The position numbers and the translations under genes were made by a program. The notes under the pieces were generated by a model. The model was not told where the DNA came from, did not search any database, and worked only from the letters and a program-made list of their open reading frames with translations. From Gemmatimonadaceae bacterium (GTDB taxonomy: Bacteria; Gemmatimonadota; Gemmatimonadetes; Gemmatimonadales; Gemmatimonadaceae): DNA of 64,000 bases. Shown here one piece after another: positions 19,793-43,039 of the stretch (position 1 is its first letter; every line of letters starts with the position of its first letter). The stretch spans positions 256,001 through 320,000 of the forward strand of contig JBHYGA010000005.1 in NCBI GenBank assembly GCA_051859245.1, read 5' to 3'.

Positions 19793-19899
19793 CCGAAAGC
19801 GGCAGCTCCCATGACGACATGAGATTTCGTGCCATCGTCAAGAGCTGATCTCCACGCAGACGCCCACAAGCCCACACGCCCAAACGCGAGAGGTCCAAC

Positions 19900-24962: not shown

Positions 24963-25167
24963 CCCTGTAAATCCTTCGGTGATCAGTTATACGAGCGAGA
25001 AACCGATGCGCCGGTACCCCGGCGCGCACCATTCAACGGCACTACTGGTCGGGCTGCTGCGTGACTCGTTCAGTCTATGCTTCAGGCAGAAACGCATGCA
25101 TGGAAACCGACGACAAGGGAGGGGCTCTTTCGAAATTCCGTTTACGCCTTCCGTTCCCGCTTCTTCA

Positions 25168-25680
25168 CTAGGTGATCAACCGAATTCCCAGTTTTGTCGT
25201 TTCCCCTTCGCCTCCAGGTGACGCAGTGGTCTCGCCGAGCGTGGCACTCTGTTCGGCGAGCACCCGCAACGTCGTACGAACGCCAGCCGCCGCTGCGATC
25301 GCCGACGTGATGATATCATGCGGCGTCTCATCCCAGATGAGCGGCCAGCCTTCCAGTCGCTCGGCCCAGCTCGTGGACAACGCACACGCCAGGCGAACTT
25401 CTTCCTGAAGAATCGCCGACGCGAACGGCGAACCGCGGCCGGGCAGGGTCCGGCACGCGTGCGCGTTCTGCTCGACCCAATAAACGGCCTGTCGAATCTC
25501 GGACGCCTTCTCGCGAGCGAGACGGGTGTATCGAAGGTGCTCATCGGCCGCCGATAAGACGGACTGCACGGAGATCGCGTCCGTCAGCTGTGTCAGCAGG
25601 AAAAACATCGCGTCCTCCAGCGCCTGCGCCAGGATGAGACGAAGCTTCACGTCTTCTGTATGGGATTTGGTATCGGACAT
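25168..25680 (-). CDS. Hypothetical helical protein
   Basis: 170-aa ORF with protein-like composition and a motif-B promoter upstream. Confidence 0.55.
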   Translation of the reverse strand: MSDTKSHTEDVKLRLILAQALEDAMFFLLTQLTDAISVQSVLSAADEHLRYTRLAREKASEIRQAVYWVEQNAHACRTLPGRGSPFASAILQEEVRLACALSTSWAERLEGWPLIWDETPHDIITSAIAAAAGVRTTLRVLAEQSATLGETTASPGGEGETTKLGIRLIT

Positions 25681-25724: not shown

Positions 25725-25749
25725 ATGACGCTCGTGGTTCGGATCGTCA
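25725..25749 (-). promoter_or_regulatory. Candidate ECF promoter, motif B (TGAC-N15-CGTCAT)
   Basis: One of 7 copies in 25.7-40 kb. Confidence 0.6.
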
Positions 25750-25812
25750 CCCCAGGCCGATGCAGGCGGCGGTGGGCGTAGCAGCCGGAACGATGAGGCG
25801 ATTGAGCGCCGT

Positions 25813-25837
25813 TGACGAATCAGCGGTTTACCGGCAT
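25813..25837 (+). promoter_or_regulatory. Candidate ECF promoter, motif B (TGAC-N15-CGGCAT)
   Basis: Upstream of the M48 gene; closely matches the copy at 37520. Confidence 0.65.
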
Positions 25838-25926
25838 TTGTCCATCAGATACGCTCCACCCCAATTGGCGAGCGTGCTGCAGGGCCACACGTTGCTCTCC
25901 TTCCCTCATACTTGCGTCCGTATTCC

Positions 25927-27807
25927 ATGATCTCTCCACGATGTGCAGCGCTGGTGGTCGCGTTTCTGCTCGGCAGCACACCTGCCACGGGAGAGGCGCA
26001 AGCAAACTTCAATCCGAGTTCGCCCGAAGAGCTGCGAGCCCTCGGTCGCTCCATACTTGCAGAAGAGGTCAGCAGCTCCGGTCGTGACCTCAATCCCGTG
26101 TGGCGGAAAGACGTGTCGATGATCATCGACAGTGTGCATAAAGCGGCGGCGTACCGGGCACATCCGGTGCGATGGGAAATCATCGGCGACTCGTCAATCA
26201 ACGCGAGCGCACTCCCGGGTGGCGTGATGATCATCAATGTGGGCCTCCCGGTGTTTTGCACCGATGTCGGAGAGCACAAGTTCCCAAGGGATGCCGCGAA
26301 GGCGCGTCGCGAATACATTGGCTGCCTCGCGGCAGTCATCGGGCACGAGTTCGGTCATCTGGCGCTTGGCCATAGCGACTCCGTCGCAGCAACCACGAAG
26401 CGTCGCCGCGAGATCGCCAGACGCAGTGATGCCGCACGTGGAATCGTTGGCGCGGTACGCGACACCGCACTGATGGGCGGACTACGTCTGGAGCGCGCGC
26501 GCGAGTTGGAAGCAGACGAAGCCGGCGCGCTCTACTTGCTCCGTTCCGGCTGGGAAGTACAGGACGCAATCAACTTGCACATGTCTCTGGACTCAGTGAG
26601 TCGCGAGGAAGGGGACTCGCAGGGGCAGCTGACATGGCTTGAGGGACATCCGCGATCGTCTGAGCGGGCGGCATTGCTCGAGGGGCGGCGCGCTCGGATC
26701 AAGCTGTTGCAGCGCGATCTTGATGATGCGCTCTCGTTGATTCGTCACGACGTGCTGCCCGATAGCGCGTTGGCCATGCTCAATCGCGTCCTCACCGATC
26801 TGCCGTACCTTGCCGCGGCGAAACATGCGCGCGCGGTATTGCTGGCGCGGCGCTGGCTGGCCACGGCGAGTGTGAGTGATCTCAAAGTGCGTCCGACCAT
26901 GTCGGTATACGACGCGCAGTTCATGGCCTCGATCCGTGGCGGCGACGCGAACGCGCTGCGGTTGGCGCGCGAGGCGTTTCGTTCTGCGCTGACGTCGAAT
27001 GAACATCCGTATACGTTGGCCAACCTCGCTGTGCTTGACGCGTACGCCGGTGACTCAGCCCTGGCGCGTCGGCGCGCCGAAACCGCAGCCGCGCGTATGC
27101 CGAACGATGCGGAGGTGCAGAATAATCTGGGCGTGGTGCATTTCGTGGCAGGCCGCATACGCCAGGCACGCGCGGCATTTGATCGGGCCGAAACACTGCT
27201 CGACGAAGACCTGACGCCGGCCGTCGCATTCAATGTCGCGCGTGCAGCGCTCGCGGCTGGTGACCGCGCCACCGCCATTCCGCTGCTCGAGCAATACGCC
27301 GCCTATGACGAGTCGACGGCATGGGGCAAGCACGCCGCGCAGCTTGCCAGAGACGCTGCGGGAACTCGCACGCCAAAGACGACTGAGCAAGTGCCGACAG
27401 CGTCCAGCGGATCGACACCAAACCTTCCATTGGCCCGCGCTCCGCTGGTAGCAGGCATCGCGCTCGGAACGCCAGCCGCGCAGTTGTATCGAGCACTCGG
27501 CGCTCCTGGCGAACGGGACACCCTCGAGTACGGCGTGATGTGGCAGTACCCGAAGCAGGGCGTGTACTACATCGTTGGCGAAGAGGGCGGGGTGCTTGTC
27601 GCGTGCCTGTACACCGCAGCGGCGGGCAGCATTGCCGGAGTGCGCGTCGGCGACGGGTTAGCGGCCGCGCTTCGGATTCTCGGACCGATTACGGAACGTG
27701 AGCGCGATGGCAATGAACAAACGTTGTCATTTGATCGCGGTGAGTGGCAGATCGTTGTACATGCGGTGGACGGTGTCGTCGATCAGATTGGGTTGCGAAC
27801 ATCGTGA
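25927..27807 (+). CDS. Secreted M48 metallopeptidase with TPR repeats
   Basis: Signal peptide, INASALPGG, HEFGH (26344-26358), ELEADEAG, HPRSSER; TPR (EVQNNLGVVHF). Confidence 0.9.
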   Translation: MISPRCAALVVAFLLGSTPATGEAQANFNPSSPEELRALGRSILAEEVSSSGRDLNPVWRKDVSMIIDSVHKAAAYRAHPVRWEIIGDSSINASALPGGVMIINVGLPVFCTDVGEHKFPRDAAKARREYIGCLAAVIGHEFGHLALGHSDSVAATTKRRREIARRSDAARGIVGAVRDTALMGGLRLERARELEADEAGALYLLRSGWEVQDAINLHMSLDSVSREEGDSQGQLTWLEGHPRSSERAALLEGRRARIKLLQRDLDDALSLIRHDVLPDSALAMLNRVLTDLPYLAAAKHARAVLLARRWLATASVSDLKVRPTMSVYDAQFMASIRGGDANALRLAREAFRSALTSNEHPYTLANLAVLDAYAGDSALARRRAETAAARMPNDAEVQNNLGVVHFVAGRIRQARAAFDRAETLLDEDLTPAVAFNVARAALAAGDRATAIPLLEQYAAYDESTAWGKHAAQLARDAAGTRTPKTTEQVPTASSGSTPNLPLARAPLVAGIALGTPAAQLYRALGAPGERDTLEYGVMWQYPKQGVYYIVGEEGGVLVACLYTAAAGSIAGVRVGDGLAAALRILGPITERERDGNEQTLSFDRGEWQIVVHAVDGVVDQIGLRTS

Positions 27808-27815
27808 CGCGTTGA

Positions 27816-29054
27816 TCACGGTCTCACAATGTTTCCTCTGCCATCGTAGTTCGTAGTTGTCTCACTGGTCGGCGTTTTCTTTCGAATGCGCACTGGGTTT
27901 TCGCAGCACTCGCTGTAAAACCGTTCCGTCAGCGTGTCGCCTTCTTCTAGCAGGTGGCGCCACGTAAACCGACGACCGTCTTCAGTTGTGCGAATCTCCC
28001 ACTCGGCGCGTGAACGCTTAGTGACACTGATGCTGTCACGTTCGGTCACGCGCGTGCCGTACAGATCATCGTCGCCGTAATACTCGTATTCAGTCCACGT
28101 ACCGTCCCGATTGATGACTCGCGTGGCGTAGTTGGAAACGGGATCGTAGGTGATTGAGCGGAATGTCCCGTCTTCGTAATCAATGCGGGTCAAGTTGTGC
28201 AGGTCGTCAAAGGTGTAGCGATAACGATTGCCGTCTGCATCGGTGCTCTCGATGATGTCGCCGCGTGCATCGTGCTTGTACGATGCTGTTTTGACTGTTC
28301 CGCTTTGATTAGTCGCGACCACGCTGGTCAGGAAGCCTTGGTCGCTAACAGAAAAAACCGCCGTCGCGCCAGTGACTTTGCTGCGAACGCTGGCAATCCG
28401 TCCACGTTGGTCGTAGGACATCACGAGCGTTTCGGAGTTGCCGCCGGTTCGCGTGAGCCGACCTTCTTCATCAAACTCCAGCGTGTCGCTGTCGGTTCGA
28501 TTGAGGATGTAGCCGTCCCCTACCCGCAGCAGTTTTTCGCCGTCGCCGGACGACATCCAGCGTGTTCCCATTGGATGTCTCGCGGCTCGCAGCTTTGACG
28601 AATCCGATAGCAGTCGTGACCAGTAGGATCGTATTTCGAGATTCTCTCGCAGCTCGGCGCGAAACGCAGCGGCTTCGTCCGGATCGGCTTTCCATCCCAT
28701 GGCCACTCGTCCAGCAACGATCTCACGAACTGCGTTTCCGATTGCGGCCTCACTCGGAAAGGGCGCGGGGAAGAATGACGTCAAGCCGCCGCCCCAGTAG
28801 ATCACCGTGACTCCACCGTCAGCAAGCGGAAGCAGGCGACTCCCTCCAATCCAGCCCCAGCCGTATCCGAAAATGCTGGTGGTCGTAGCTTTCGAGTTAT
28901 AGGCCCGTTGGATCTCCAATCCTTCAAGTCTGAGGTCGGTATACGACACACTGTAGTTGCCATTCTTCCAGTTGACCTGCGATCGAGCAGTGCACGGAAT
29001 CACAAGAAGTACGGCGGCTGTAGATAAAGCCCGAATTGCGGCGGACACGTTCAT
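27816..29054 (-). CDS. Secreted YD/RHS-repeat protein (DUF6531-like N-terminus), no toxin tip
   Basis: VNWKNGNYSVSYTDL..LEIQRAYNS..FGYGW, YDQRGRI, YTFDDLHNLTRI repeats; ATGA overlap with the caspase-TPR gene. Confidence 0.85.
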   Translation of the reverse strand: MNVSAAIRALSTAAVLLVIPCTARSQVNWKNGNYSVSYTDLRLEGLEIQRAYNSKATTTSIFGYGWGWIGGSRLLPLADGGVTVIYWGGGLTSFFPAPFPSEAAIGNAVREIVAGRVAMGWKADPDEAAAFRAELRENLEIRSYWSRLLSDSSKLRAARHPMGTRWMSSGDGEKLLRVGDGYILNRTDSDTLEFDEEGRLTRTGGNSETLVMSYDQRGRIASVRSKVTGATAVFSVSDQGFLTSVVATNQSGTVKTASYKHDARGDIIESTDADGNRYRYTFDDLHNLTRIDYEDGTFRSITYDPVSNYATRVINRDGTWTEYEYYGDDDLYGTRVTERDSISVTKRSRAEWEIRTTEDGRRFTWRHLLEEGDTLTERFYSECCENPVRIRKKTPTSETTTNYDGRGNIVRP

Positions 29055-32000
29055 TGCTGTACCGACCGATCCGAAGGTGAAGCTACCGACAACTTCAACG
29101 CTTCAAAATGTCGGGCGGCCGCGGCGTTGAATGGAACCGCCGGTCGCTGCTCCCTCGCCTCGCGCAGCATCTCGCGTGCCGTCTCGCGATCGCCGGCCAT
29201 CCAAAGCACCAGCGCACGCGTTGTACGATCGGGGGTTGTTCGCAACGAGTCTGCTTCGTCAAGGCGCGCGAGCGCGCTCTTGGCATCGCCGAGATCCAGC
29301 TGCACGAGTACCTGCAGCGAGAGCAGCGATGCTCGGGCCGCGCTCTCATCCGTGCCAGCACGAGCGAACGCTGCGCTGAGATGCTCCTGAGCGCTGTCCA
29401 TATTGCCAAGTGTGTACGCGATGCGTGCGAGACCAAGGAGCGGCCGCATGCGATCGGGCGCAAGATCGCGCGCAGCCTGCCAAAGTGCGCTGGCAAGGGC
29501 GAGGTTGCCATCAAACTCCTGGGCCGCTGCCCGAGTCTCAAAGCGAAGGCTGACCTCGGATGAAGGATAGCGCCATGAGTTGCTGCGCATCGCATCACGA
29601 TACAGTCGAACCGCGTCCGCCACGCGCCCTTGTTCTGCGCGCAACTCGGCAAGCTCAGCAAGTGCACGAACATGCAGCGGGTCCATCAGCGCGACGCGCT
29701 CGTACGCGGCAGCGGCACGATCATACTCCCCGGAAGCATACAGATATCGAGCGTAGTGCAGCGCAGGGATCGGGTTCCCGTTGAATAGTCCGATCGCCTC
29801 TTCAAACAACGACGCGGCCTCAGCAGCTCGACGCTGTTCTCCAAGCAGCTCCGCGAGTCCGATACGCGCCCAATAGTGACGAGAATCGCGCTGAATGGCC
29901 TCGCGGTACCATCGCTCCGCATCCGACGTGCGGTCGCTGTTCTCGTAGAAAACAGCAAGCTGATACGCAGGCTCACCCAGCGTGTGCATCGCAGAGTCGG
30001 CTGCGATCAGAAGTCGCTCGCCTTCACGCTCGCGGCCAGTTGACCGCAAAAGTTCAGCAAGGTTCCAGTATGCATCGCTGTTCAGTGGGTCGAGCGCAAT
30101 CGCACTACGAAAGTCTCGCTCTGCGCGCTCGGCGTTCGTGTTCACCCAGATTTCGCCAAGATCGTTGCGCGTTCGAGAGTCAAACGGATCCAACTGCGCC
30201 GCGCGTTCGAGGGACTCGGTAGCGCCCGCGCCGTCTTTGCGCTCGAGCAGTGCGAGACCCCGTTGATAGTGCGTCACAGGGTTTGTTGAGTCCATTCCAA
30301 GTGCTAACGTCAACAAAGAATCTGCTTCGTTGAGCCGTTCCTGATTGATCGCAACGGCGGCCAGGTTTGTCAGGTAGAGTGGGTTCTGTAGCCGCTCCCA
30401 CGCGCTTGCGAAGTCGCGCCGCGCGTCCGTGTACCGGTCCATTTCCATGAAGAGAACGCCGCGATTGTTGTACGCCGCGCCACTGCCCGGGTGCAGCGTC
30501 AGCAGCTGTGCGTAAGCGTCAAGCGCTTCCTGCTGCAAGCCCTGATCTCGAAACAAATCTGCGCGTAGCTTGTGCGCATACTCCCATCGAGGCGCCAGCT
30601 CCAACGCCCTGTCGGAGGAACGCTGCGCCGACGCGTAATCCCCTTTTGCCGCAAAGAGTGCAGCGAGTGCGGCGTGTATCGGAGCGGCGCCTGAATCTGC
30701 TTTGAGCGATTCGTTCAGCATTCGCTCGGCTTCGTCAAAGCGGCTCAAGTCCCGTTCGCGAACAATCGCAAACGCCTTCATGAACTGCTCACGCGCCACG
30801 AGGTCATCAAAAACAACGCGCTCACTTCCACGCAATCGTCGTGCGAACTCAAGCGCCCGGCCTGCTGCGCGAAACTCGGAGGCCTGCGGGTAGTCGCTCA
30901 CGCCGCGAAGGAAACGACGTGCCGGTTCCTCGGCGGACTCCCGAAGCGCAACAGCCAAGGTTCCGCGTACGCGACGGACTAGTGCTGCATCATTCACGTT
31001 TGTCGAGTCCAAACGCATGACGATTTGCTCTTGAAGCACCCACGCACTCGGCTCAGCGATGCTGCCGAGCTCCGGCTCCAGCAAGCGAGTCTGAGCGATG
31101 GCACTCTGGAACTCGTTCAGAAGTCGATTGACGGCGGTGTCACGGACAACCGATGGCAAAGTGACCGAGTCGGTGCTCCGCCCACCTAGGTCTACCGTCT
31201 CGGTGTTTCGCGAACGCATCGCTCGCACGGCCAGCAGGGCTTCCGCGCGAGGGCGCGAGACCGAAAAAAGCACTGCTCTCGGCCTCGATGAGAATGCCAG
31301 AGGAGTTTGGTAGGCGTTTGGGTATGCGCGCTCAGTCGATGCACTGACGGAGTCCATCACGTAGCGATTTACTTCATCGAAAGTCACTGAAGCACTCGAA
31401 TCAACGTCGGCAAGCCCGTGAAGTGCCTCGATCAGGTAGTATGTGAACGCCCCGTGACCCCCGCCCCATATCGCATTTTCGTAAGAAAGCTGCTCTCCCG
31501 TGCTGGAAAGCATCTTGTTGACTTCCGGCCACTGACCCAAACGCGTTAGAGTGGCTTGAGCTCCCTCGCGAGTGTCGGCTACAGCGCCAGCCCGACACGC
31601 ATCAATCATGATGATGAGTTCGCCCCCACCATTCTGCTTTAAATACAGTTCCGCTTCTTGCGCGAGGAGCCTGGGATTTATCGCGTCATTCGAAAAGCTA
31701 TAGATGCCCCGAGTCGCTTGCGTCAGCAACAGGTACGCGTCGCTGATATCACCCGAAGCGCCAATGCGTTGGACGTCTCCGTGCCCCGCAAAGTAAAAGA
31801 AAAGCCGGTCCCCAGGTTTTGTTTGACTCGCTCTGGTCATCAACGCTTGCCCAACCGTGTCTCGCCTTGCTTTCTCGTTGAGAAAGAGATCTACATTCGC
31901 AGGGTCGAGACCTCCGCCCTTAGGGCTAACTAGGAACTCGTGCAACGCCTCGGCATCATTGTCTGCGAATTGCAGAGACGCGAGACTCGTATACTTGGAG

Positions 32001-32152
32001 ACACCAACGATTACAGCTCGCGAAGTGCCTTTGTTGCTCGCTGTCGTCGGGGTGCCGAGACCACGAGTCCCCTTTTGTGCTTCGGCGTTCGACATGGCCA
32101 CGGCCAGGCCGAGTGAACACAAAGTAACGGTTTCAAACAATCTGCTTCGCAT
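29051..32152 (-). CDS. Secreted peptidase C14 (caspase family) with C-terminal TPR array
   Basis: AVIVGVSKY, LQFADNDA, YFAGHG (His 31781-31783), IDACRAG (Cys 31595-31597), GHGAFTYYL; many TPRs. Confidence 0.92.
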   Translation of the reverse strand: MRSRLFETVTLCSLGLAVAMSNAEAQKGTRGLGTPTTASNKGTSRAVIVGVSKYTSLASLQFADNDAEALHEFLVSPKGGGLDPANVDLFLNEKARRDTVGQALMTRASQTKPGDRLFFYFAGHGDVQRIGASGDISDAYLLLTQATRGIYSFSNDAINPRLLAQEAELYLKQNGGGELIIMIDACRAGAVADTREGAQATLTRLGQWPEVNKMLSSTGEQLSYENAIWGGGHGAFTYYLIEALHGLADVDSSASVTFDEVNRYVMDSVSASTERAYPNAYQTPLAFSSRPRAVLFSVSRPRAEALLAVRAMRSRNTETVDLGGRSTDSVTLPSVVRDTAVNRLLNEFQSAIAQTRLLEPELGSIAEPSAWVLQEQIVMRLDSTNVNDAALVRRVRGTLAVALRESAEEPARRFLRGVSDYPQASEFRAAGRALEFARRLRGSERVVFDDLVAREQFMKAFAIVRERDLSRFDEAERMLNESLKADSGAAPIHAALAALFAAKGDYASAQRSSDRALELAPRWEYAHKLRADLFRDQGLQQEALDAYAQLLTLHPGSGAAYNNRGVLFMEMDRYTDARRDFASAWERLQNPLYLTNLAAVAINQERLNEADSLLTLALGMDSTNPVTHYQRGLALLERKDGAGATESLERAAQLDPFDSRTRNDLGEIWVNTNAERAERDFRSAIALDPLNSDAYWNLAELLRSTGREREGERLLIAADSAMHTLGEPAYQLAVFYENSDRTSDAERWYREAIQRDSRHYWARIGLAELLGEQRRAAEAASLFEEAIGLFNGNPIPALHYARYLYASGEYDRAAAAYERVALMDPLHVRALAELAELRAEQGRVADAVRLYRDAMRSNSWRYPSSEVSLRFETRAAAQEFDGNLALASALWQAARDLAPDRMRPLLGLARIAYTLGNMDSAQEHLSAAFARAGTDESAARASLLSLQVLVQLDLGDAKSALARLDEADSLRTTPDRTTRALVLWMAGDRETAREMLREAREQRPAVPFNAAAARHFEALKLSVASPSDRSVQQ

Positions 32153-32189
32153 CAGGGCTCTCTTCTTCTGCTGTGCAAGCTATGTGATC

Positions 32190-32214
32190 GCAACGTGCGA
32201 CCGCCGCACGTTGC
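32190..32214. terminator. 10-bp perfect hairpin between the two caspase genes
   Basis: GCAACGTGCG-ACCGC-CGCACGTTGC; no clear poly-U tail. Confidence 0.45.
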
Positions 32215-32224
32215 GTACAACAAA

Positions 32225-34318
32225 CTATTTCCGCTTCGGCACAGTATCGAGAATATCAATGCGGTGCGATAGCGTAGTCCAACCGACAATAGGCTTGGGA
32301 TTTGAACGCCACTTGCCGCTATCATTTGGGCCTTTGTCGTTAGGACCGCGCGCGCCGTCGCAGGCGCCGAACGACTCGACGAGCGGCTGGAAGCTGAACT
32401 GATCAGAGTTCACAACCATCTTCAGCATTTCACTGCCGACCGGTTCCAGCATTGGAATCGACTCACCGACAAGTATCCATTTGTTCATCTCGATCGGAGA
32501 ATGTGGAATACCTGCCGGAGGCCACAGCACAGCTGGATCGGAGGTGTAGCCGCCGATCGCGATGGTCATGTACAACGACGAGATTTCGGCTTGCTGCAGC
32601 TGTGCGTCTGCCCGAGCGTACACATCGTAACTTTTGCCCAGGAGAACTGAGTCGGGTATTCCCGCAGGGCGCAGACCACGCGGTGCCCCTGCTCCCGCAG
32701 GCACTAAACGTATGTCCAACGTGAGACCTGTTGGCGGTGTTGGATTCTCGATGCTATTGAGCGACGTGATCGAAAGCGCGCGAATCAGCGGGCGGCACAG
32801 CGCGTTGCCACGATAGCCCACGATAGAATCCACTCGCACTGCCTCGTCTGGCTGCGGGGCCAGGGCGACGCCGTTTACAAAGACCCGCGCAACGCCGAGA
32901 CTCTGAGCAACGATGGCGTCTGCAGACGCGGAATCCACGATCACAAAGCGGCTCGAGTCTCGGCGTACTTCCGTCGCTAACGCCATGGCGCTCTTGTCGA
33001 AGTACACTTTCAATCGATCAACGCGATTCGCGCCGAGCGGAACACGCGACAGGACGGCGCGTGCACTGACCGGCAGCGTCGGTTTGGTGAACGAACTTCC
33101 GGCGGCGCCGAGCACGCTGCCTTGCTCATCGACGTACACGGCGAAAGCTCGTTCGGCAACCACAGAGTCAACGCGTACTCGCGCAATGGGAGCCGAGGAA
33201 AACTGCACCTCGCCAGAGCGATACACGTCGTAGTTCGCGGTCTTTCGCACACCGTGAATAGCGCCGGCGTCGAGGACCAGCCGACCACCCACTTCTCGCG
33301 CCGTGACGAACGGCTGTGCTGCCACGCCTTCGTTGGATTTGAAAATCAGAGCCGTCTGATCACCTTCGAGCTGCGGCACCTGCGGCAGCATTGCGCCGCG
33401 CACGTTCGATCGCAAACGCTGAATGAGCTCGTCGTACCGCAGTCCACGTGTTCCCGCGGCACCGTCAAGGGCGCGCGTCAGATGATACGTCATCGCGCCA
33501 ATCCACACACGCGTTCCGTCTTCATCATACGGAAGCTCCTGCGCCGTTTGGTCACTGCGCGCCGCGGTGATCAACGTGTGTCCACGCGCTTCGGTGAAGT
33601 CCGCGAGGCCGCCCGTATCTGGCAGCGCGATCGTGTCTGGTTTGGGGCCCTTGTCCCGCCCGACGGCATCACCATCTCCACGCGTCACGGTGCCAGAATA
33701 GCACGCATCAATAATGATCGTGACGTTCTCGGTGCCGAGCGCTTTCAGATACGCTCGAATGTCATCATCAAGCACCAGCTGCGACGGATTGTGCGCGTCC
33801 TCCGCATCAAACGGTACAAGTCCCTCGTCACGTCCGTCCGGCTCATCTTTGTCCACACCATCGGGCGCGTGCGATCCGTGACCAGAAAAGTAGATCACCA
33901 CCGCGTCATCTTTGGTCAGCGCGCGCTCAGCCAACCACTTGAATCCAGCCGCGATCCCGGCCTTGGTCGCCGAGGAGCCGAGCAATACGCGCGTGTCTTC
34001 GGTGGCGCCAAAGCCCCAGCGATTCAGGCTGACCTGCAGGCGTTTTACATCGTTCTCCGGGCCCTGCAAATCGGACAGCGGCTTTGTCCCCGCTCCAAAA
34101 TGCTGGTAGTCCGCAATGCCGATCAGCAGCGAAATCTTGCGAGGAGCACGCGTAACCTTCGTTCCGACGACATCCGCCGCGTGGAGACGCATCTCGGCGC
34201 TCGAGGCGCTGGCGAGAGCAACTGGGAGGGGACGCGACCACCCCAGGGAGATGGAAGCGCTTGCCAAGATGGTGGCGACGGAAGCCGTGCGGACAACCTG
34301 TTTGCGCGATGGGCGCAT
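32225..34318 (-). CDS. Secreted peptidase C14 (caspase/metacaspase family) with C-terminal DUF4384-like domain
   Basis: LLIGIADY, LQGPENDV, YFSGHG (His 33878-33880), IDACYSGTVTRG (Cys 33701-33703), QVPQLEG, LDAGAIHGV. Confidence 0.92.
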   Translation of the reverse strand: MRPSRKQVVRTASVATILASASISLGWSRPLPVALASASSAEMRLHAADVVGTKVTRAPRKISLLIGIADYQHFGAGTKPLSDLQGPENDVKRLQVSLNRWGFGATEDTRVLLGSSATKAGIAAGFKWLAERALTKDDAVVIYFSGHGSHAPDGVDKDEPDGRDEGLVPFDAEDAHNPSQLVLDDDIRAYLKALGTENVTIIIDACYSGTVTRGDGDAVGRDKGPKPDTIALPDTGGLADFTEARGHTLITAARSDQTAQELPYDEDGTRVWIGAMTYHLTRALDGAAGTRGLRYDELIQRLRSNVRGAMLPQVPQLEGDQTALIFKSNEGVAAQPFVTAREVGGRLVLDAGAIHGVRKTANYDVYRSGEVQFSSAPIARVRVDSVVAERAFAVYVDEQGSVLGAAGSSFTKPTLPVSARAVLSRVPLGANRVDRLKVYFDKSAMALATEVRRDSSRFVIVDSASADAIVAQSLGVARVFVNGVALAPQPDEAVRVDSIVGYRGNALCRPLIRALSITSLNSIENPTPPTGLTLDIRLVPAGAGAPRGLRPAGIPDSVLLGKSYDVYARADAQLQQAEISSLYMTIAIGGYTSDPAVLWPPAGIPHSPIEMNKWILVGESIPMLEPVGSEMLKMVVNSDQFSFQPLVESFGACDGARGPNDKGPNDSGKWRSNPKPIVGWTTLSHRIDILDTVPKRK

Positions 34319-34441
34319 TGGTGAGCCTCAAGAGGTGACAAGGTGCAGCGGTAGGCGACCCTCGCGGAAGGGCCAGAGCGCTCCCTCGGCGGGACGAACG
34401 GTGCTCAACAGCACCGACCGCCCTTCGGATCCCACCAGCTG

Positions 34442-34466
34442 ATATCGGTTCGTCCCGTACTTGTCA
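34442..34466 (-). promoter_or_regulatory. Candidate ECF promoter, motif B variant (TGAC-N15-CGATAT)
   Basis: Upstream of the caspase-caspase-YD unit. Confidence 0.5.
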
Positions 34467-34534
34467 TTGTCCTTCACCGGCAGCAGAATAGGCGATCCCA
34501 AACGCCCAGGCGCTCGGTCGACGCGAGTGCTCGA

Positions 34535-34559
34535 TGGCATTTTCTCCCGGCACCGGCAT
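34535..34559 (+). promoter_or_regulatory. Candidate autoregulatory ECF promoter, motif B variant (TGGC-N15-CGGCAT)
   Basis: -10 box ends 7 nt before the sigma ATG at 34567. Confidence 0.55.
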
Positions 34560-34566
34560 CTCCTGC

Positions 34567-35214
34567 ATGGATGAACGCTCGTTGAGCGAATTGCTCGTTA
34601 CTCTGCGCGATGGCTACGAGCACGAGCGCGACGTTGCATGGGCGGCTTGCTACAGTCAGTTTCGCGATTTGGTGTGGACCCGGGTGTTTTATGTTATCCG
34701 TACCATTCCGTGGCTCCCGGAGCCGCGCGAGGTCGTGGAAGAAATCACAAGCGATGTCTTCGTCGGGTTGCCGACGGCGGTGCGCGCGTATCGTGACAAT
34801 GGGAAAGGGGAGCAGTGGCTCAAGCAGGTGGCCGTGCGGACAGCGTTGCGGGCGCGGGAGCGTATTACAGGTGATTGGAAAAGACGCGATCCTTCTGCGT
34901 TGTCGGCCTCGCTCGATCGGCCTGGCCGCATCTACTCTTCGTTCGACCATCATGCGAATGACATCGTTGACGCGCTGGATGCGATCAAACGCGACGAGCT
35001 CCTGGAGCTCGAACGTCGGATCGACGTGATGCGAAGCAGTGCCGATCCGCGGCAGCAGCGGTGGGCAACATTTCTCGATTTGTATCGGGAAGGCTTCGGC
35101 TTTGCAGAGATCGGCCAGCGCATGGGGTTAACCGAGGGAACAGCTCGTAACTGGCTCGTGGAAATCAGGCGGCAGCTGGCAACACCGCCCGCCGAGGTGC
35201 GTCTGCATGGCTGA
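34567..35214 (+). CDS. ECF-type sigma factor
   Basis: AWAACYSQF..EEITSDVFV..QWLKQVAVRTAL region 2; EGFGFAEIGQRMGLTEGTARNWL region 4 HTH. Confidence 0.85.
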   Translation: MDERSLSELLVTLRDGYEHERDVAWAACYSQFRDLVWTRVFYVIRTIPWLPEPREVVEEITSDVFVGLPTAVRAYRDNGKGEQWLKQVAVRTALRARERITGDWKRRDPSALSASLDRPGRIYSSFDHHANDIVDALDAIKRDELLELERRIDVMRSSADPRQQRWATFLDLYREGFGFAEIGQRMGLTEGTARNWLVEIRRQLATPPAEVRLHG

Positions 35215-35953
35215 GCGTCACAGCAGCACGTCGGATCCCGACGATGACCCGTTGCGTCCGCTTCATGCGCCGGATGACGAGGACACGCAGCGTGTAGAAG
35301 CGATGCTCAGCTTGTCGAGTCGCGCGCCCGTTTCACTCGATGCCCGCGTCGCTTCTCGGCGTGAAGCCGGAGACCACGTACTGCTTCCGGTGCCGGAAAC
35401 TGAGCCCACGTCCACGCGCGAACATCGCTCTCCGGCGCGGCGATTCATTCTGCCCGCCGGCATCGCGGCCGCGGCTGTGCTCTCGTACTTCCTGTTCCCC
35501 CAGACGGAGAAGAGTTCGGCCGGTGATCAGCGATTGGCACAGAGCGATTCGAGTGTGCCCGCGAGCGCTTCCGACTCGGTCCACGAACCGGCGTCTCACC
35601 GCGACTCGTCGTCATCCCGCGCGGACCGACTGCCGAGCACCACGCCCGAACGCGGCGATGTTGCGCTGGGTTACCGTGGCGCGGGAACGGCGATCTTCAC
35701 GGCACGAATGCGCGACTTTCGCGAGACGACGGTGGATTCGGTAGCCGACGCCACACTGCGCGACACGACGTACAACATCATCATCTCGCATCCGACGGGT
35801 AACGCCGAACTCGCCGCGCTGGCCAAACGGATTGGGCAGGCGCTGACAGGTCGTGGTGTGAAGTTGTCAGCCGTGCACATTGACGAGGGCGGAGCCGCCG
35901 CTTCCATCGGCGCAGTAACCATTGAGGTTCGATCGGCAGATCGGATCCCCTGA
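35207..35953 (+). CDS. Putative anti-sigma factor, single TM
   Basis: Overlaps the sigma stop; TM FILPAGIAAAAVLSYFLF, Ser-rich linker, small C-terminal domain. Confidence 0.65.
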   Translation: MAERHSSTSDPDDDPLRPLHAPDDEDTQRVEAMLSLSSRAPVSLDARVASRREAGDHVLLPVPETEPTSTREHRSPARRFILPAGIAAAAVLSYFLFPQTEKSSAGDQRLAQSDSSVPASASDSVHEPASHRDSSSSRADRLPSTTPERGDVALGYRGAGTAIFTARMRDFRETTVDSVADATLRDTTYNIIISHPTGNAELAALAKRIGQALTGRGVKLSAVHIDEGGAAASIGAVTIEVRSADRIP

Positions 35954-35997
35954 CCGATCCACGCGCCGCGCACCTTCTCCACGAAAGTTGACGCTGA

Positions 35998-37431
35998 CTA
36001 TCGACCGGGAATCCGGTCCGCAAACGGTGCCCAATCGAACACCGAGAGCGCGAAGTACAACTTCGGTTTTCCATACCCGTCAACAATGCGCACCTGCGAC
36101 GCATCGGCCACAACGTCACCAACGCGCGCGCCCACGAGCGATTGCTGCCGCATCCACATTGCGCCAGCGCTGACCTTCAGAAAACCGAGCGACACCGCAG
36201 TACCAATGCCGGCTCCGGTCACATCACCTGCGGCAACAACAACCTCAGGTAGCCACACCGCAAGGCCACTGCCGTCGCGGCGATCGAGGCCCCTCCAGGT
36301 GAAGCCCAGTGTGCCGCCGAGTCCAAAGCGACGGTCCGTCCGTCCGCTTTCATAAACGCGTGCTCCGCCATCCACATCCTCGGTCGCGTACGTCGGAAAC
36401 CGTCCGCCCGGTGCAGCGATGCCAGCAATCGCCACCGCCGGTCGAATGAACGGCTGGGGCTGCACAATGACCGTGTACTCGGCCACCTCACGACTTGCAA
36501 TGCGAGCCAGTTCGGCCTCGGTGCGCGGCTCTACGCGGATCGTGACGGACCGTCCGCTCGTGCGGCTCCCTTTCGCAACACCTGCGCTCCATTTCGAGCA
36601 GGAGTTCGCAACAATGCCAACGAGTCGTTCCGCACGATAGGCGCTGGCCAGCAGCGATTCAAAGTCTGCCAAGGCAGACTGCGCACGCACATCGAGCACG
36701 CGCACCGAATCGCGCAGCGCTTGCCATCGCGCGTCTTCGTACGATTGCCCGAGTGTGGCGACTCGCATGTTCTCCGTGGCACCACTCAGGGCAACCAGAG
36801 ACGAGAGCAACGACTCCGCCGTCGGCAGACGCACCGGCTCTTGTGCTCCGCATGACTGCCCCACACTGAGCCGGCGACGCAGCGGTTCCGCTGCCACTTC
36901 CGGTGCAACGTTGCGTCGCATCTGTTCAAGCGCGAGCAGTGTGGTTGTGATCGTTGGCTGCAACCCGCGCTCACCAAACACCGCTTCGTCGATTTGCATC
37001 AGGCTTCGCTCCGCCGTGCCCAGCGCGAGCGCGAGTGCCAGGCGCGCGTCAGCGACATTCTGTGCGGGCTCGATGAAGCCTGCGCCACGCGAACCCGAAA
37101 GTGCGGACCGTAGCTCGGGCACATACGGCGTGAGTCGGCTCGCGAAACCCGACAGCGCCTGCGCCTCCGGCAGTGGGACCGACGCGCTGGTCCGACTGAA
37201 GTTGTACAGCGCCGTGTTGGTGTTCACCACGTCGATCTCCACCGGTACATTATGCGGCAATCGGACCACCGCGTGACTTCCGAGCGCACTGGTGTCCGCC
37301 CGTACGCCGCGCTGTACAATCAGTCGCAGTGCTCCGGTCCCGTGATCGATTTCAACGCGCGCGCGCTGCGCGCGTGCATCAGTGGCGACGAGAGCAATCA
37401 GGACGAGGAGTATGACGGATCGCAAGCGCAT
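35998..37431 (-). CDS. Secreted hypothetical protein (paralog of 37636-39114)
   Basis: Signal peptide ending ARA|Q; beta domain, helical middle, beta-rich C-terminus. Confidence 0.75.
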   Translation of the reverse strand: MRLRSVILLVLIALVATDARAQRARVEIDHGTGALRLIVQRGVRADTSALGSHAVVRLPHNVPVEIDVVNTNTALYNFSRTSASVPLPEAQALSGFASRLTPYVPELRSALSGSRGAGFIEPAQNVADARLALALALGTAERSLMQIDEAVFGERGLQPTITTTLLALEQMRRNVAPEVAAEPLRRRLSVGQSCGAQEPVRLPTAESLLSSLVALSGATENMRVATLGQSYEDARWQALRDSVRVLDVRAQSALADFESLLASAYRAERLVGIVANSCSKWSAGVAKGSRTSGRSVTIRVEPRTEAELARIASREVAEYTVIVQPQPFIRPAVAIAGIAAPGGRFPTYATEDVDGGARVYESGRTDRRFGLGGTLGFTWRGLDRRDGSGLAVWLPEVVVAAGDVTGAGIGTAVSLGFLKVSAGAMWMRQQSLVGARVGDVVADASQVRIVDGYGKPKLYFALSVFDWAPFADRIPGR

Positions 37432-37471
37432 GATGCTGGTTGGTTGGTGGGAACAAGGAGCCAGGCACAGA

Positions 37472-37497
37472 ATGCCGGTGACGGTCATTCCGTGTCA
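37472..37497 (-). promoter_or_regulatory. Candidate ECF promoter, motif B (TGAC-N16-CGGCAT)
   Basis: Back-to-back with the copy at 37520. Confidence 0.55.
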
Positions 37498-37519
37498 TTG
37501 CGCGCATCGCGTCAAACGG

Positions 37520-37544
37520 TGACGTTCCAGAGGTTTAGCGGCAT
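37520..37544 (+). promoter_or_regulatory. Candidate ECF promoter, motif B (TGAC-N15-CGGCAT)
   Basis: Upstream of 37636. Confidence 0.65.
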
Positions 37545-37635
37545 TCAAAGTACAACGTGGTCAGACGCGAGTCCCGCAGCACCGAAGGGTCGCTTTGGGA
37601 TGCCAGACGAAGACACACACTATCACCGACACCAG

Positions 37636-39114
37636 ATGTCGCTTTCCCGCAAGCTTCTCACGGCGATGTTTCTCGCGACGGCGCTGCCAACACTGGCCCC
37701 CGCGCAGCCAACCACGGCTACCCGCGCGGCGGCAGTCGACACGTCGCGCGCTCGCACGCGACCCGCCCGCGTGGTGTCGTCCCGAGATCCGTGGACGGTT
37801 GTCTATGATCACGTTACAGAAACGATGAAAGTGAGCGACCATCGAGGTCGCATCCAGTCATCTTTTGCTGGCGCATCGTTGATTGATGGTCCGGTGGTCC
37901 GCATTCCACCCGACCGTCCGGTGGAAGTACGCATCACCAATGCGAACCCCATGTTGTACCGGTACGATGTTACAGGTCCGGTGGTACAGGAGCGTCGAGC
38001 GCGAAGCTGTCGTTCGGTGCTCGGGACATTTGCGCAAGCGGGCCTTCAGTTCAGCGCCGCGAACATTGCTGGCGTGCAAACCAAGTGGACCACCGACACG
38101 CTGATGCGCAGGGTGTTCTCGGCGTCTGACCTCGCACGGCTTGGTGGGACCGCCGTGCGCGGTGAACCGCTCAGCGACGCTGATCGTGCGCGTACGATTA
38201 GCCTCGTGCAAGAGCGTGTGGAGTCGTACGAATCACGGGCCGAAGCAATCGGTGATTTTGCCTCCACCATCGATGACTCGCTGGCACGAATCGCTGAACT
38301 CTCCGATGCGACGCCCTCTGGTACGATGCTCGACGGCCTCGCGGGTACGATTCGCAAATTCCTGCCCAGTGCAAACCGCTCTGTTGATGTTCCGCTGTCA
38401 CTTCGCGCACTCGAACAAGAGGCGCAGCAACCGGCTACGGTGCTGATGCAGCTTGCTGCGACCGGCGACAGTGATGTACGACCGCTTCGCATTCGTTTCG
38501 ATAGCGCGTTAACGCAGATCGCTGCAAGCTACCGAAAGCTGCAAGCGCAGCTGTATCAGATCGAACAATATCAACTTGGCGTTGATCAGCGTTGGACGCT
38601 TGACCCGAGCGCCGACTACCGCGCGGTACGCATTCGCATGGAGGCGACGTCAGGCTTTGCCGAGATTCCGCGCTTTAAAGCGGGAACAGTGGAGGCCTTG
38701 ATCAACCCGATCAGTCGAGTGGCGTGTAGTCTGGCTCCCGGCTTGACGATCGCGAACGCGCCACGTGCGTTTGCCCTCCGGAACGACACCATCGTGAGTG
38801 CCAATAAATCAGATCAGCGTGCGGCACCGGCCCTGCAGTTGCACCTCGACATCGTGGATTTTCCATTGCCGGTCGGCGTGCTCGCCGGAGTGGGACTGGG
38901 CGTGAATCAGCGACCGGATTGGTATCTCGGTGGGAGCTTTCGACTGACTGACATTGTGCGCCTGAATGCCGGTACGCTCTGGCAACGGGAAGAACAACTT
39001 GGCAGTGGTCGCGAGCTCGGTTCCATAGTGCCACCGGCGCAGCGCCCCGCATTTGATGCGAGGACGCAGAAGTTTGCGCCGGCGTTTTTCTGGGGAATCA
39101 GTTTGGTGCCGTGA
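37636..39114 (+). CDS. Secreted hypothetical protein (paralog of 35998-37431)
   Basis: Signal peptide ending APA|Q; VVRIPPDRPVEVRITNANPMLYRY matches the paralog. Confidence 0.75.
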   Translation: MSLSRKLLTAMFLATALPTLAPAQPTTATRAAAVDTSRARTRPARVVSSRDPWTVVYDHVTETMKVSDHRGRIQSSFAGASLIDGPVVRIPPDRPVEVRITNANPMLYRYDVTGPVVQERRARSCRSVLGTFAQAGLQFSAANIAGVQTKWTTDTLMRRVFSASDLARLGGTAVRGEPLSDADRARTISLVQERVESYESRAEAIGDFASTIDDSLARIAELSDATPSGTMLDGLAGTIRKFLPSANRSVDVPLSLRALEQEAQQPATVLMQLAATGDSDVRPLRIRFDSALTQIAASYRKLQAQLYQIEQYQLGVDQRWTLDPSADYRAVRIRMEATSGFAEIPRFKAGTVEALINPISRVACSLAPGLTIANAPRAFALRNDTIVSANKSDQRAAPALQLHLDIVDFPLPVGVLAGVGLGVNQRPDWYLGGSFRLTDIVRLNAGTLWQREEQLGSGRELGSIVPPAQRPAFDARTQKFAPAFFWGISLVP

Positions 39115-39151
39115 CTTTCGAACTGACGTGAGCCTCTTGTGCACCGAAGTA

Positions 39152-39901
39152 TCAGTTTGTTGTCAGCCGATATCGATTGTAGTACACGTCGTCCCAGTTC
39201 TTGATGACCAGCCTGTGCGTGCTCGTGGTCCTCGGATACCAGTCCAATACGCAGAAGTCAGTATCGTCAACATCGCGTGCAACGACTCGGCCGTTCTGGT
39301 CATACACCCAGCAGTCAAGGTCTGTATCTCCGTCGCCATTCACGCGAATTGATGCCAGTACACCACCCTCAAACGCAATGCGAAACGTGTCCGTGCTGTT
39401 GGCGTCGACATCAAAGACACCTGATTTCGGTCCGTTGACGGCACCGCGTGATCCCGATGCGTTACGCTGCTGCAGCTGCGCCACCACCAAGGTGAGATTG
39501 GCATTGTCACGACCAGCTGCCTGAGCGGATGCCAGGAGTTGGCCGACGTCGAGAGAAGCCTGAGCTCCAGCCTTCTGAGGCCTCGGACCCGGCGCGCCCG
39601 CCTTGTCCGATTCAGGAACAAGGGAAAGCGGCCGCGTAGGGTTGTCGAGGAGGAGCTGCGCGGCGGCAGCGAGTGCCAATCCAGAGTTAGTGCGCTGACC
39701 ATAGTCCGCGAGCTGCGCGGCGAGCGAGACTGCTTCCACAGCGTTCTGCGTCTGGGGTGTACTCGCAGGCCTCGGACGAGCAGTGGCGCTTTCCTTTGAC
39801 GAAGGTATGCCTCCGGAAGTGGTGGCGCAGCCAGCTGCAGCGGCCGATAGCAGTACCAACGTTGAGTTGCGAGCAAAGCGGGTAGAAAACGAGTGCATCA
39901 T
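39152..39901 (-). CDS. Lipoprotein with helical N-domain and C-terminal PPC-like domain
   Basis: Lipobox AAAGC; GDGDTDLDCWVYDQNG is a pre-peptidase C-terminal-like motif. Confidence 0.8.
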   Translation of the reverse strand: MMHSFSTRFARNSTLVLLSAAAAGCATTSGGIPSSKESATARPRPASTPQTQNAVEAVSLAAQLADYGQRTNSGLALAAAAQLLLDNPTRPLSLVPESDKAGAPGPRPQKAGAQASLDVGQLLASAQAAGRDNANLTLVVAQLQQRNASGSRGAVNGPKSGVFDVDANSTDTFRIAFEGGVLASIRVNGDGDTDLDCWVYDQNGRVVARDVDDTDFCVLDWYPRTTSTHRLVIKNWDDVYYNRYRLTTN

Positions 39902-39956
39902 GCGCCTCAGAATGTGTGTGGAGCGTCAAAACATGCGCGCTGTGAACTGGTTACTT

Positions 39957-39981
39957 ATGGCGGCTCGCAGTCGCGATGTCA
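39957..39981 (-). promoter_or_regulatory. Candidate ECF promoter, motif B (TGAC-N15-CGCCAT)
   Basis: Upstream of the lipoprotein start at 39901. Confidence 0.6.
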
Positions 39982-42405: not shown

Positions 42406-42511
42406 TTGCCAAGGGTAGTCAACCGGCGCAATATAGCGCTGGGCGAGTGTACAGCACCGCCTGCGCCACACACTCTCTTGCCAACATATGACTTCAGGAC
42501 CGCCGGATGTC

Positions 42512-43039
42512 ATGCACAGCTACTCCCTGATCCTCCAGGAAATCCTCCGCAGCTACACAATCCCCCGGAACGGCTACCACGGCGTAGTCCACTGGGCTCG
42601 TGTGCTCGAAAACGGCCTGCGCATTGCCGAGTCCAACGGCGCTGACACCGAAGTCGTCACGCTGTTTGCACTGTTTCACGATTCGCGTCGCATCAACGAA
42701 CACCGCGATCACGGCCACGGTCAACGCGGCGGTGAGTTCGCGCGCTCGCTGCGCGGCACGCTCGTACATCTCGACGACTCGCGCTTTGATTTGCTCTACA
42801 CCGCGTGCGAGTTGCACACCGACGGGCACACCACCGGCGATCCAACAATCCTCGCCTGCTGGGACGCTGATCGGCTGGACCTTGGGCGCGTGGGCATCAC
42901 GCCGAGGCCCAATCGACTCTGCACGGACACCGCGCGCGATCTGCTGGATTGGGCGCACTTCCGTGCGACAACGGCGCACGTACCAACGGCCGTGCTGGAG
43001 TCGTGGAACATGTCGCCCAAACTTGCCCCACTCAGGTAG
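42512..43039 (+). CDS. HD-domain phosphohydrolase
   Basis: HGVVHWARV, LFHDSRR, HGQRG, CWDADRLDLGRVG; alternative start 42488. Confidence 0.85.
   Translation: MHSYSLILQEILRSYTIPRNGYHGVVHWARVLENGLRIAESNGADTEVVTLFALFHDSRRINEHRDHGHGQRGGEFARSLRGTLVHLDDSRFDLLYTACELHTDGHTTGDPTILACWDADRLDLGRVGITPRPNRLCTDTARDLLDWAHFRATTAHVPTAVLESWNMSPKLAPLR

Follow-up and report, generated by a model that had tools for sequence, protein, structure and literature searches.

A Divergent ECF-Type Sigma Factor and Seven Promoter-Like Sites in a Caspase-Family Gene Block of a Gemmatimonadaceae Bacterium: A Probable Autoregulated Regulon

The Gene Block and Its Promoter-Like Sites

The stretch of DNA analysed here (the window) comprises 64,000 nucleotides (nt) from a Gemmatimonadaceae bacterium (GenBank assembly GCA_051859245.1, contig JBHYGA010000005.1, positions 256,001 to 320,000 of the forward strand), and it carries a block of genes for caspase-family proteases, an M48 peptidase and other exported proteins, together with a divergent sigma factor of the extracytoplasmic function (ECF) type. 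This block is accessory and patchily distributed. Seven promoter-like sites precede its genes and, as judged from the sequence, they are very probably the promoters of the sigma factor encoded at 34567-35214, the block then forming one autoregulated regulon.

By Pfam and PADLOC annotation, the genes follow one another in the order CHAT protease, uncharacterised gene, WD40 protein of 1311 amino acids (aa), 170-aa protein, M48-TPR peptidase, RHS protein, caspase-TPR protein, 697-aa caspase and sigma factor, after which come a membrane protein gene overlapping the sigma stop codon, two paralogues, a lipoprotein and a Ser/Thr kinase with TPR (Table 1). A signal-peptide-like N-terminus is present in nearly all of these proteins except the sigma factor, the 170-aa protein and the kinase. 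Regarding Cas-related Pfam families, none was found among the 17 block proteins scanned, and PADLOC returned caspase and kinase models only.

The element shared by the sites consists of a -35 block, (A)TGAC(A/G)A, and a -10 block, CG(G/T)CAT, separated by a spacer of 15 nt, occasionally 16. The sites at 25725(-), 25813(+), 37520(+) and 39957(-) fit the form TGAC-N15-CGNCAT exactly; site 3 has CGATAT as its second block and site 4 has TGGC as its first, both off consensus. Site 3 has a counterpart in orthologous loci, where a back-to-back site occupies the equivalent position. An earlier note on the window, written from its letters, had listed the seven strings, and on re-reading all of them are present at the positions of Table 1, oriented toward the nearest start codon and including three back-to-back pairs in divergent gaps (3/3 in the window), as that note had described. 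Its further statement that every copy is intergenic holds under the likeliest start codons and fails for sites 4, 5 and 6 under the longest possible open reading frames (ORFs), whose starts at 34534, 37488 and 37252 enclose them. The sigma start was set at 34567 by homologue alignment, and the starts at 37431 and 37600 were set by signal peptides, so these three sites are taken as intergenic.

The 1311-aa gene starting at 24962 is not directly preceded by a copy, in agreement with the earlier note, as a matrix scan of 24963-25167 was without a site. No terminator-like hairpin was found in 24963-25167 either; read-through from site 1 into this gene would be no more than a possibility. As to other promoters, one sigma-70-like promoter was found between 24 and 43 kb, against 4.0 expected. 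This sole match (34461-34489(+), TTGTCA-17-CAGAAT) is located before the sigma gene, where it shares bases with the -35 block of the opposite-strand site 3; it could be a source of basal sigma expression.

Table 1. Positions in the window of the promoter-like sites and of the genes of the block; site scores (bits) and genome ranks are those of the weight matrix built from other genomes.
Feature	Position	Strand	Remarks
Site 1, promoter-like	25725..25749	-	Precedes 170/180-aa gene at 25680/25710; 19.0 bits, genome rank 12
Site 2, promoter-like	25813..25837	+	Precedes M48-TPR peptidase gene; 19.5 bits, genome rank 9
Site 3, promoter-like	34442..34466	-	Precedes operon caspase (697 aa)-caspase-TPR-RHS; 14.5 bits, weakest copy
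Site 4, promoter-like	34535..34559	+	Ends 7 nt before sigma ATG 34567; 22.4 bits
Site 5, promoter-like	37472..37497	-	16-nt spacer; precedes gene of exported 477-aa protein; 15.2 bits
Site 6, promoter-like	37520..37544	+	Precedes gene of exported 504-aa protein; 17.8 bits, genome rank 26
Site 7, promoter-like	39957..39981	-	Precedes 249-aa lipoprotein gene, between co-directional genes; 16.3 bits
Extra weak candidate, not counted as a member	19810..19834	-	14-nt spacer; 10.2 bits; precedes CHAT protease gene
Divergent ECF-type sigma factor, 215 aa from ATG 34567	34567..35214	+	Assigned by Pfam, homologues and model
Single-pass membrane anti-sigma candidate	35207..35953	+	Start overlaps sigma stop by 8 nt; transmembrane residues 79-97
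CHAT protease	16586..19660	-	Pfam/PADLOC
Exported 1311-aa protein, WD40 repeats and weak caspase match (E 1.7e-4)	21027..24962	-	Without own site
170-aa protein, no known family	25168..25680	-	Behind site 1
Exported M48 peptidase with TPR	25927..27807	+	Behind site 2; orthologues in L035, L037, L026
RHS-repeat/DUF6531 protein, 412 aa	27816..29054	-	Last in caspase operon; overlaps previous gene by 4 nt
Exported caspase-TPR protein, 1033 aa	29051..32152	-	Same operon as 697-aa caspase
Exported caspase (Peptidase_C14), 697 aa	32225..34318	-	First gene behind site 3
Exported 477-aa protein, no known family	35998..37431	-	Behind site 5
Exported 504-aa protein, no known family	37600..39114	+	Behind site 6
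Lipoprotein-like protein, 249 aa	39152..39901	-	Behind site 7; orthologues in L023, L028
Membrane Ser/Thr kinase with TPR	40147..42513	-	Conserved neighbour of the sigma family; no convincing site

The Sigma Factor and Its Candidate Anti-Sigma Factor

The sigma factor matches PF07638 (E 1.1e-5) and, weakly and below the curated cut-offs, PF04542 and PF08281; its orthologues match PF04542 more strongly than the window copy does. Public protein sets hold 95 homologues at E 4.5e-28 or better, from Gemmatimonadaceae where they are named, and a profile of 46 homologues (alignment A1) resembles solved ECF sigma factors weakly by sequence, the best PDB match having an E value of 1.6e-4. The AlphaFold model (predicted local distance difference test score, pLDDT, 87) has two helical domains, and its best Foldseek matches are ECF sigma factors (SigE, SigW, AlgU and sigma-E), with a TM-score of 0.76 at 2.7 Å between the sigma-2 domain and 4lup_A. 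Sequence and model thus both point to membership of the ECF type (group 4) of the sigma-70 family.

This sigma family is found in 8 of the 301 sampled genomes of the taxonomic family, in 4 of its 77 genera, and in none of the 8 other sampled genomes of its own genus. A search for orthologues in 40 sampled relatives, including G021, returned none, the best other match reaching 48% identity over 48 residues.

The gene overlapping the sigma stop codon is predicted to encode the cognate anti-sigma factor, as judged by its downstream position and its homology to anti-sigma factors of the zf-HC2 type. Its product aligns (alignment A3) with proteins bearing H-x3-C-x2-C over the post-zinc helix and the membrane helix; zf-HC2 (PF13490) matches six of ten position-equivalent proteins and does not match the window copy. 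The part outside the membrane has about 150 residues, and no CHAT or TPR match was found in it at E values up to 0.5. In the loci L026, L035 and L037, two such anti-sigma domains occur in tandem.

Distribution of the Element in the Genome

The element was scored with a weight matrix built from 18 sites of other genomes only, which had been selected by a relaxed version of the regular expression in the earlier note; this matrix is independent of the sequence of the present genome but not of the idea of the motif. It was applied to the 4.70-Mb Gemmatimonadaceae genome to which the window belongs and in which the block occupies 14.3 kb. Site 4 is the top match of the whole genome, and the block sites rank 1, 9, 12, 26 and 54 among 573 genome matches. 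When only matches in promoter position are considered (n=103), the top three are all inside the block. At a threshold of at least 14.4 bits, 8 of 115 matches fall in the block against 0.33 expected (Poisson P 2e-9), one of the eight being the opposite-strand reading of site 1, and any other 15-kb stretch of the genome holds at most 4.

At the same threshold, sites in promoter position accompany 6 of the 9 genes called in the block and 28 of 3468 elsewhere (Fisher P 4.5e-11); the gene calls behind this comparison are crude (longest ORFs plus a codon score), which counts as a point against the assignment. The earlier note would have been refuted by a motif equally frequent in unrelated intergenic DNA; this is not the case, as before unrelated genes it is rare (28/3468). 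Within the block, the matrix finds no site before the kinase gene and only the weak candidate with a 14-nt spacer before the CHAT gene.

Outside the block, the match at C5:128251 was rejected, as it lies antisense in an apparent small ORF (by eye) upstream of a ribonucleotide reductase gene and was taken as chance. The match at C6:274161, in front of an asparaginase-family gene, is doubtful, its second block reading CGGCAAT. Since one of these two best outside matches is probably chance and the other doubtful, the regulon seems to be limited almost entirely to the block.

The neighbourhood of the rejected match has a feature of its own: a long untranslated stretch (C5:128200-128800 of G000, that is, L048 6200-6800) stands before the ribonucleotide reductase gene (ATP-cone, RNR barrel) and by eye resembles a riboswitch leader. 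Regarding structured RNA in the window, an Rfam scan of 15000-44000 found nothing, and the predicted folding of the 123-nt leader before the caspase operon does not stand out from that of shuffled sequences (z -1.3).

Conservation at Related Loci

The comparative set consisted of 26 loci encoding relatives of the sigma factor, on other Gemmatimonadaceae contigs. In the closest clade (L021, L023, L024, L028, L032 and L033) the stretch before the sigma ATG aligns with that of the window. Both blocks of site 4 show little or no variation there, the spacer sequence varies, and a second site stands back to back on the opposite strand. In a more distant clade (L040-L042, L046) the CGGCAT is kept and the first block is GTGAGAAA.

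The reverse test applied a matrix derived from the seven sites of the window to 20 sigma orthologues; 14 of these are preceded by a site that reaches or exceeds the 95th percentile of random controls and ends about 6-12 nt before the ATG. The top 20 matches of this matrix in 144 kb of the loci are nearly all in promoter position. As the second block ends so close to the start codon, the sigma mRNA is probably leaderless or has a very short leader. In addition, the N-terminal 'extension' of some database sigma proteins (MA...TGI...) is probably translated promoter. The second block close to the sigma start also occurs in L021, L023, L028, L032, L035, L037 and L040-L043.

A separate stretch of about 35 nt is conserved downstream of the divergent promoter in L021 (4580-4640) and in L023, L024, L028, L032 and L033; it lies within the leader of a gene for a 289-aa membrane protein (alignment A2, columns about 45-85) and is absent from the window.

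The genes next to the sigma gene are conserved as well. As seen by BLAST, orthologues of the 697-aa caspase, the M48-TPR peptidase, the lipoprotein, the 504-aa protein and the kinase adjoin the sigma gene elsewhere, in differing orders and orientations, and Pfam identifies further caspases, CHAT-TPR, WD40 and PPC-domain proteins in those loci. The element precedes a caspase gene or operon in L022, L025 and L021, and both the M48 and the kinase gene or operon in L037, while the housekeeping neighbours in those loci have background scores only. The comparison with orthologues that the earlier note had proposed therefore finds the same motif before sigma orthologues (14/20) and before orthologues of the target genes.

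In L022 (10611-13310) and L025 (7265-11943), the sigma and anti-sigma genes are followed by genes for a PycTM-domain protein and a SIR2-TIR protein, and L025 additionally encodes an nSTAND1 NTPase. These are protein types characteristic of anti-phage defence systems; before the SIR2-TIR genes of L022 and L025, a promoter element was not found.

Assignment of the Sites and Rival Explanations

The earlier note had assigned the sites to the sigma factor at 34567, had called them ECF-like promoters and had proposed positive feedback, and the three proposals are upheld as far as sequence comparison reaches. The assignment is suggested by the top site of the genome standing 7 nt before the sigma ATG, by conservation at orthologues and by the predicted ECF fold. 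An ECF-like character is consistent with the CG(T/G)C in the -10 block, the spacer within 14-17 nt and the conservation of both at sigma orthologues, and the form of the sites agrees with the CGTC-type -10 block and 14-17-nt spacer of ECF promoters in the accessible part of PMC6061681. Positive feedback would follow from the sigma gene having as its own site the best of the genome, conserved in orthologues, with CG(G/T)CAT placed 15 nt after TGGC as in a cognate promoter. From these features we infer that the local sigma factor reads the sites, and likewise where transcription would start.

Several observations weigh against this assignment, some of them general and others belonging to one of three rival explanations. 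Many ECF promoters typically have AAC in the -35 block, and ECF groups differ in this block. A -35 block of the (G)GAAC or AAC type was not found in the present sites, which have (A)TGAC(A/G)A or TGGCA and share only AC with it. The window copy of the anti-sigma candidate is without the H-x3-C-x2-C zinc-finger motif kept by its orthologues. Furthermore, a high-scoring site immediately before the gene is missing for 6 of the 20 sigma orthologues. Those of L022 and L025 follow a caspase gene with a site of its own, and those of L026, L036, L038 and L046 score lower. In the genome G069, a loose pattern in IUPAC letters has 98 matches, none of them near its sigma gene; the matrix finds a variant near that gene, with CCGTCTTT as its -10 block. 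The IUPAC pattern gave only background among the matches listed for G046 and G201.

The statistics within the window are weak, and they leave room for the seven matches being chance similarities picked from GC-rich intergenic DNA. The regular expression TGAC-N15/16-CGNCAT has 6 matches in the window against 2.02 expected, about a three-fold enrichment that 2 of 100 shuffles equal, and one of the six (29551) sits within a gene; genome-wide, its N15 form has 81 matches and is no commoner than other spacings (4.70 Mb). Similarly, an enumeration of exact 4+4-mer dyads in the 1519 nt of intergenic DNA of the block did not single out the motif, higher counts being reached by shuffles, and three of the seven sites deviate from the consensus given by the earlier note. 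Such an origin is nonetheless extremely improbable, given that the matrix from other genomes recovers the sites with P values around 1e-9 to 1e-11, that the reverse test works and that the blocks are conserved across orthologous loci.

The shape of the element raises a different objection, namely that it could be the operator of a dimeric transcription factor that binds an inverted repeat, ATGACG-N13-CGTCAT, and represses or activates the block from there, the true promoters lying elsewhere. The two halves share a core, ATGxC, after one of them is reverse-complemented, and some sites are perfect or near-perfect palindromes that score on both strands (L022 6684+/6707-, L037 6486+/6509- and 3847+/3870-); site 1 of the window is itself near-palindromic, with 14.6 bits on the + strand beside its 19.0 bits on the - strand. 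However, among 27 non-redundant sites the two-fold symmetry of a symmetric operator was not found: only 2 are near-symmetric (at least 6 of 7 half-site positions), and three of the 10 positions compared (5, 6 and 8) show a systematic difference between the halves, with A/A/T on the left and G/G/G on the right. In the sigma-proximal sites, the left block is TGGC in all seven aligned loci and the right block varies between T and G. All seven sites flanked by two genes of the same orientation also point in that direction, and the sigma factor is the only conserved DNA-binding protein of these loci, no conserved transcription factor being found besides it. There is also hardly any sigma-70-like promoter for such an operator to regulate, and half-site centres about 19-20 bp apart are unusual for a dimeric helix-turn-helix protein. 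Because the halves differ, the sites are co-directional (7/7), other regulators are missing and sigma-70-like promoters are few, a directional two-block promoter is favoured, and the operator is a decidedly improbable reading.

In L022 (6684-6709) and L037 (6485-6511), a single palindromic element occupies a divergent gap; it might fire both ways.

A third explanation accepts the sites as real ECF-type promoters and has them read by another sigma factor of the genome, the local one being merely one of the targets. The genome encodes further sigma-70-family paralogues, of which weak matches at C4:627553 and C1:909155 could read the sites, and sequence alone never proves which sigma factor a promoter belongs to. 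Against this, the element travels with the sigma family across genera despite the scattered distribution of the family (8/301, and none in the other sampled genomes of its own genus), and the best site of the genome belongs to the local sigma factor itself. In the most divergent sigma clade (L040-L042) the -35 block changes, to GTGAGAAA, which is expected if sigma factor and site coevolve. Reading by another sigma factor is accordingly held to be improbable, and the seven sites are treated below as promoters of the sigma factor at 34567.

Other Genes of the Block

The 697-aa caspase has orthologues in L021, L024 and L037 with 38-41% identity, and its catalytic dyad, His147 and Cys206, is invariant across them. 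Orthologues of the 504-aa protein in L022 and L025 lie between the caspase and the sigma gene; the 477-aa and 504-aa proteins are themselves weak paralogues (35% identity over 60 residues, E 9e-5). The C-terminal part of the lipoprotein matches proteins of L026 and L035 whose genes are preceded by the element, and a protein-atlas look-up of the lipoprotein returned unnamed clusters only.

Residues 356-548 of the kinase, beyond its membrane helix, are about 30% identical to separate membrane proteins of 266-290 aa (L021:3668-4537, L023:1154-1954, L024:5767-6639 and L028:8922-9794), whose genes are divergent from the sigma gene and upstream of the lipoprotein orthologue. On the opposite strand, a 183-aa ORF at 42488-43039(+) with a weak HD-domain match (E 0.006) overlaps the 5' end of the kinase gene by 26 nt, and either its start codon or that of the kinase is probably wrong.

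Comparison with Known Systems

The present system resembles sigma-E/RseA of E. coli and SigW/RsiW of B. subtilis in its two-domain sigma factor, whose gene is preceded by a promoter of its own type, in the downstream overlapping gene for an anti-sigma factor with one membrane helix and, in most of the orthologues, a zinc finger, and in the CGTC-kind -10 block, the 14-17-nt spacer and a regulon directed to the envelope or to exported proteins. It differs from both in that the sigma factor is very divergent, the -35 block is ATGAC(A/G)A and not of the AAC type, the sigma mRNA is probably leaderless, and the regulon consists of caspase-family and M48 protease genes gathered in a compact block.

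Closer relations to caspase-like proteases are described in the accessible parts of the following sources. In Myxococcus xanthus, DdvS/DdvA is a pair of ECF sigma factor and transmembrane zinc-binding anti-sigma factor that controls a local multi-operon defence island; a periplasmic TPR-CHAT module is fused to DdvA, and the DdvS regulon comprises CBASS and CRISPR-Cas (PMC6061681, PMC11506125). The two systems are alike in this pairing with a local island and in having a caspase-family module on the periplasmic side; in contrast, a fused TPR-CHAT was not found in the product of 35207-35953, the caspases and the CHAT protease are encoded separately and exported, most of them being targets of the sigma factor, and no CBASS or CRISPR-Cas genes are present. 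In the type III-E CRISPR system of CASP-sigma, Csx30 and Csx29, a CHAT protease cleaves the inhibitor of the sigma factor, and motifs in the own locus were read as positive autoregulation (PMC10028731, in its accessible part). The link of a caspase-like CHAT protease to an ECF-type sigma factor with motifs in its own locus is shared; on the other hand, Cas7-11, Csx29, Csx30 and Csx31 were not found by Pfam scan among the 17 block proteins, the anti-sigma candidate is of the classical membrane kind, and the proteases have signal peptides, placing any cleavage outside the cytoplasm. Since the defining features of the DdvS/DdvA and CASP-sigma families were not found, the present system belongs to neither, although its way of working may be related.

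Caspase neighbourhoods with ECF sigma factors were described by Kaur, Iyer, Burroughs and Aravind in 2021, with an EACC2-caspase and a DUF1822 TPR partner (PMC8195603, accessible part). The association of an ECF sigma factor with caspase and CHAT-TPR proteins is common to both; EACC2 and DUF1822 were not found here. The group ECF54 is likewise associated with CHAT-TPR proteins and has peptidase neighbours, but it is reported from Actinobacteria only, has no obvious anti-sigma factor and has GTATCAG / CTCC as its predicted motif (PMC7826278, accessible part), so that both phylum and motif differ. Kinase-linked groups (ECF43, ECF59-62, ECF217, ECF267 and ECF283) are typically without anti-sigma factors according to the accessible part of the same source; they share the conserved Ser/Thr kinase neighbour, whereas the present family has an anti-sigma factor.

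The promoter element described here is given neither in the accessible text of PMC8195603 nor in the ECF54 portion of the supplement of PMC7826278. In the accessible content of that supplement, TGACA, TGACG, ATGAC and CGGCA have no occurrence, and caspase, Peptidase_C14 and Peptidase_M48 are not mentioned. The main text of this ECF re-classification paper (PMC7826278) does not mention Gemmatimonadetes, caspase, CHAT, peptidase or M48. This divergent Gemmatimonadaceae sigma family, with its predicted promoter, would be an addition to the ECF systems linked to caspase-like proteases.

Proposed Mechanism and Significance

In the mechanism proposed here, the sigma factor would be co-produced with the single-pass membrane anti-sigma factor (35207-35953), which presumably keeps it inactive. 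Once released, the sigma factor would transcribe its own operon, giving positive feedback, and also six neighbouring units that encode mostly exported proteins: the two caspases with the RHS protein, the M48-TPR peptidase, the two paralogous uncharacterised proteins, the lipoprotein and the small 170-aa protein, perhaps together with the downstream WD40/caspase-like giant.

As to what releases the sigma factor and what the exported proteases do, we infer one tentative scheme, in which the block would be a protease-gated, self-amplifying switch and a split relative of DdvA; this is considered unlikely. The sigma factor would induce the exported caspases and the M48 peptidase, one of which would cut the periplasmic part of the anti-sigma factor and free more sigma factor, so that induction would be all-or-none. 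The membrane kinase could act as a second input, its periplasmic domain being homologous to a membrane protein that would be controlled by the sigma factor in sister loci. If this were true, the switch would commit the cell to a drastic envelope programme, such as death, self-lysis or RHS-mediated attack on neighbours.

An autoregulated ECF sigma factor with a local regulon is a textbook principle, and the gain is a well-supported new case, not a new mechanism. Little has been described of how bacterial caspase homologues are controlled, and the present case allows three or four of them to be attributed to a single sigma factor whose promoter can be read, in company with an M48 peptidase and several uncharacterised exported proteins. 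This assignment also gives an experimental handle, as more of the sigma factor, or removal of the anti-sigma factor, should switch on the whole set.

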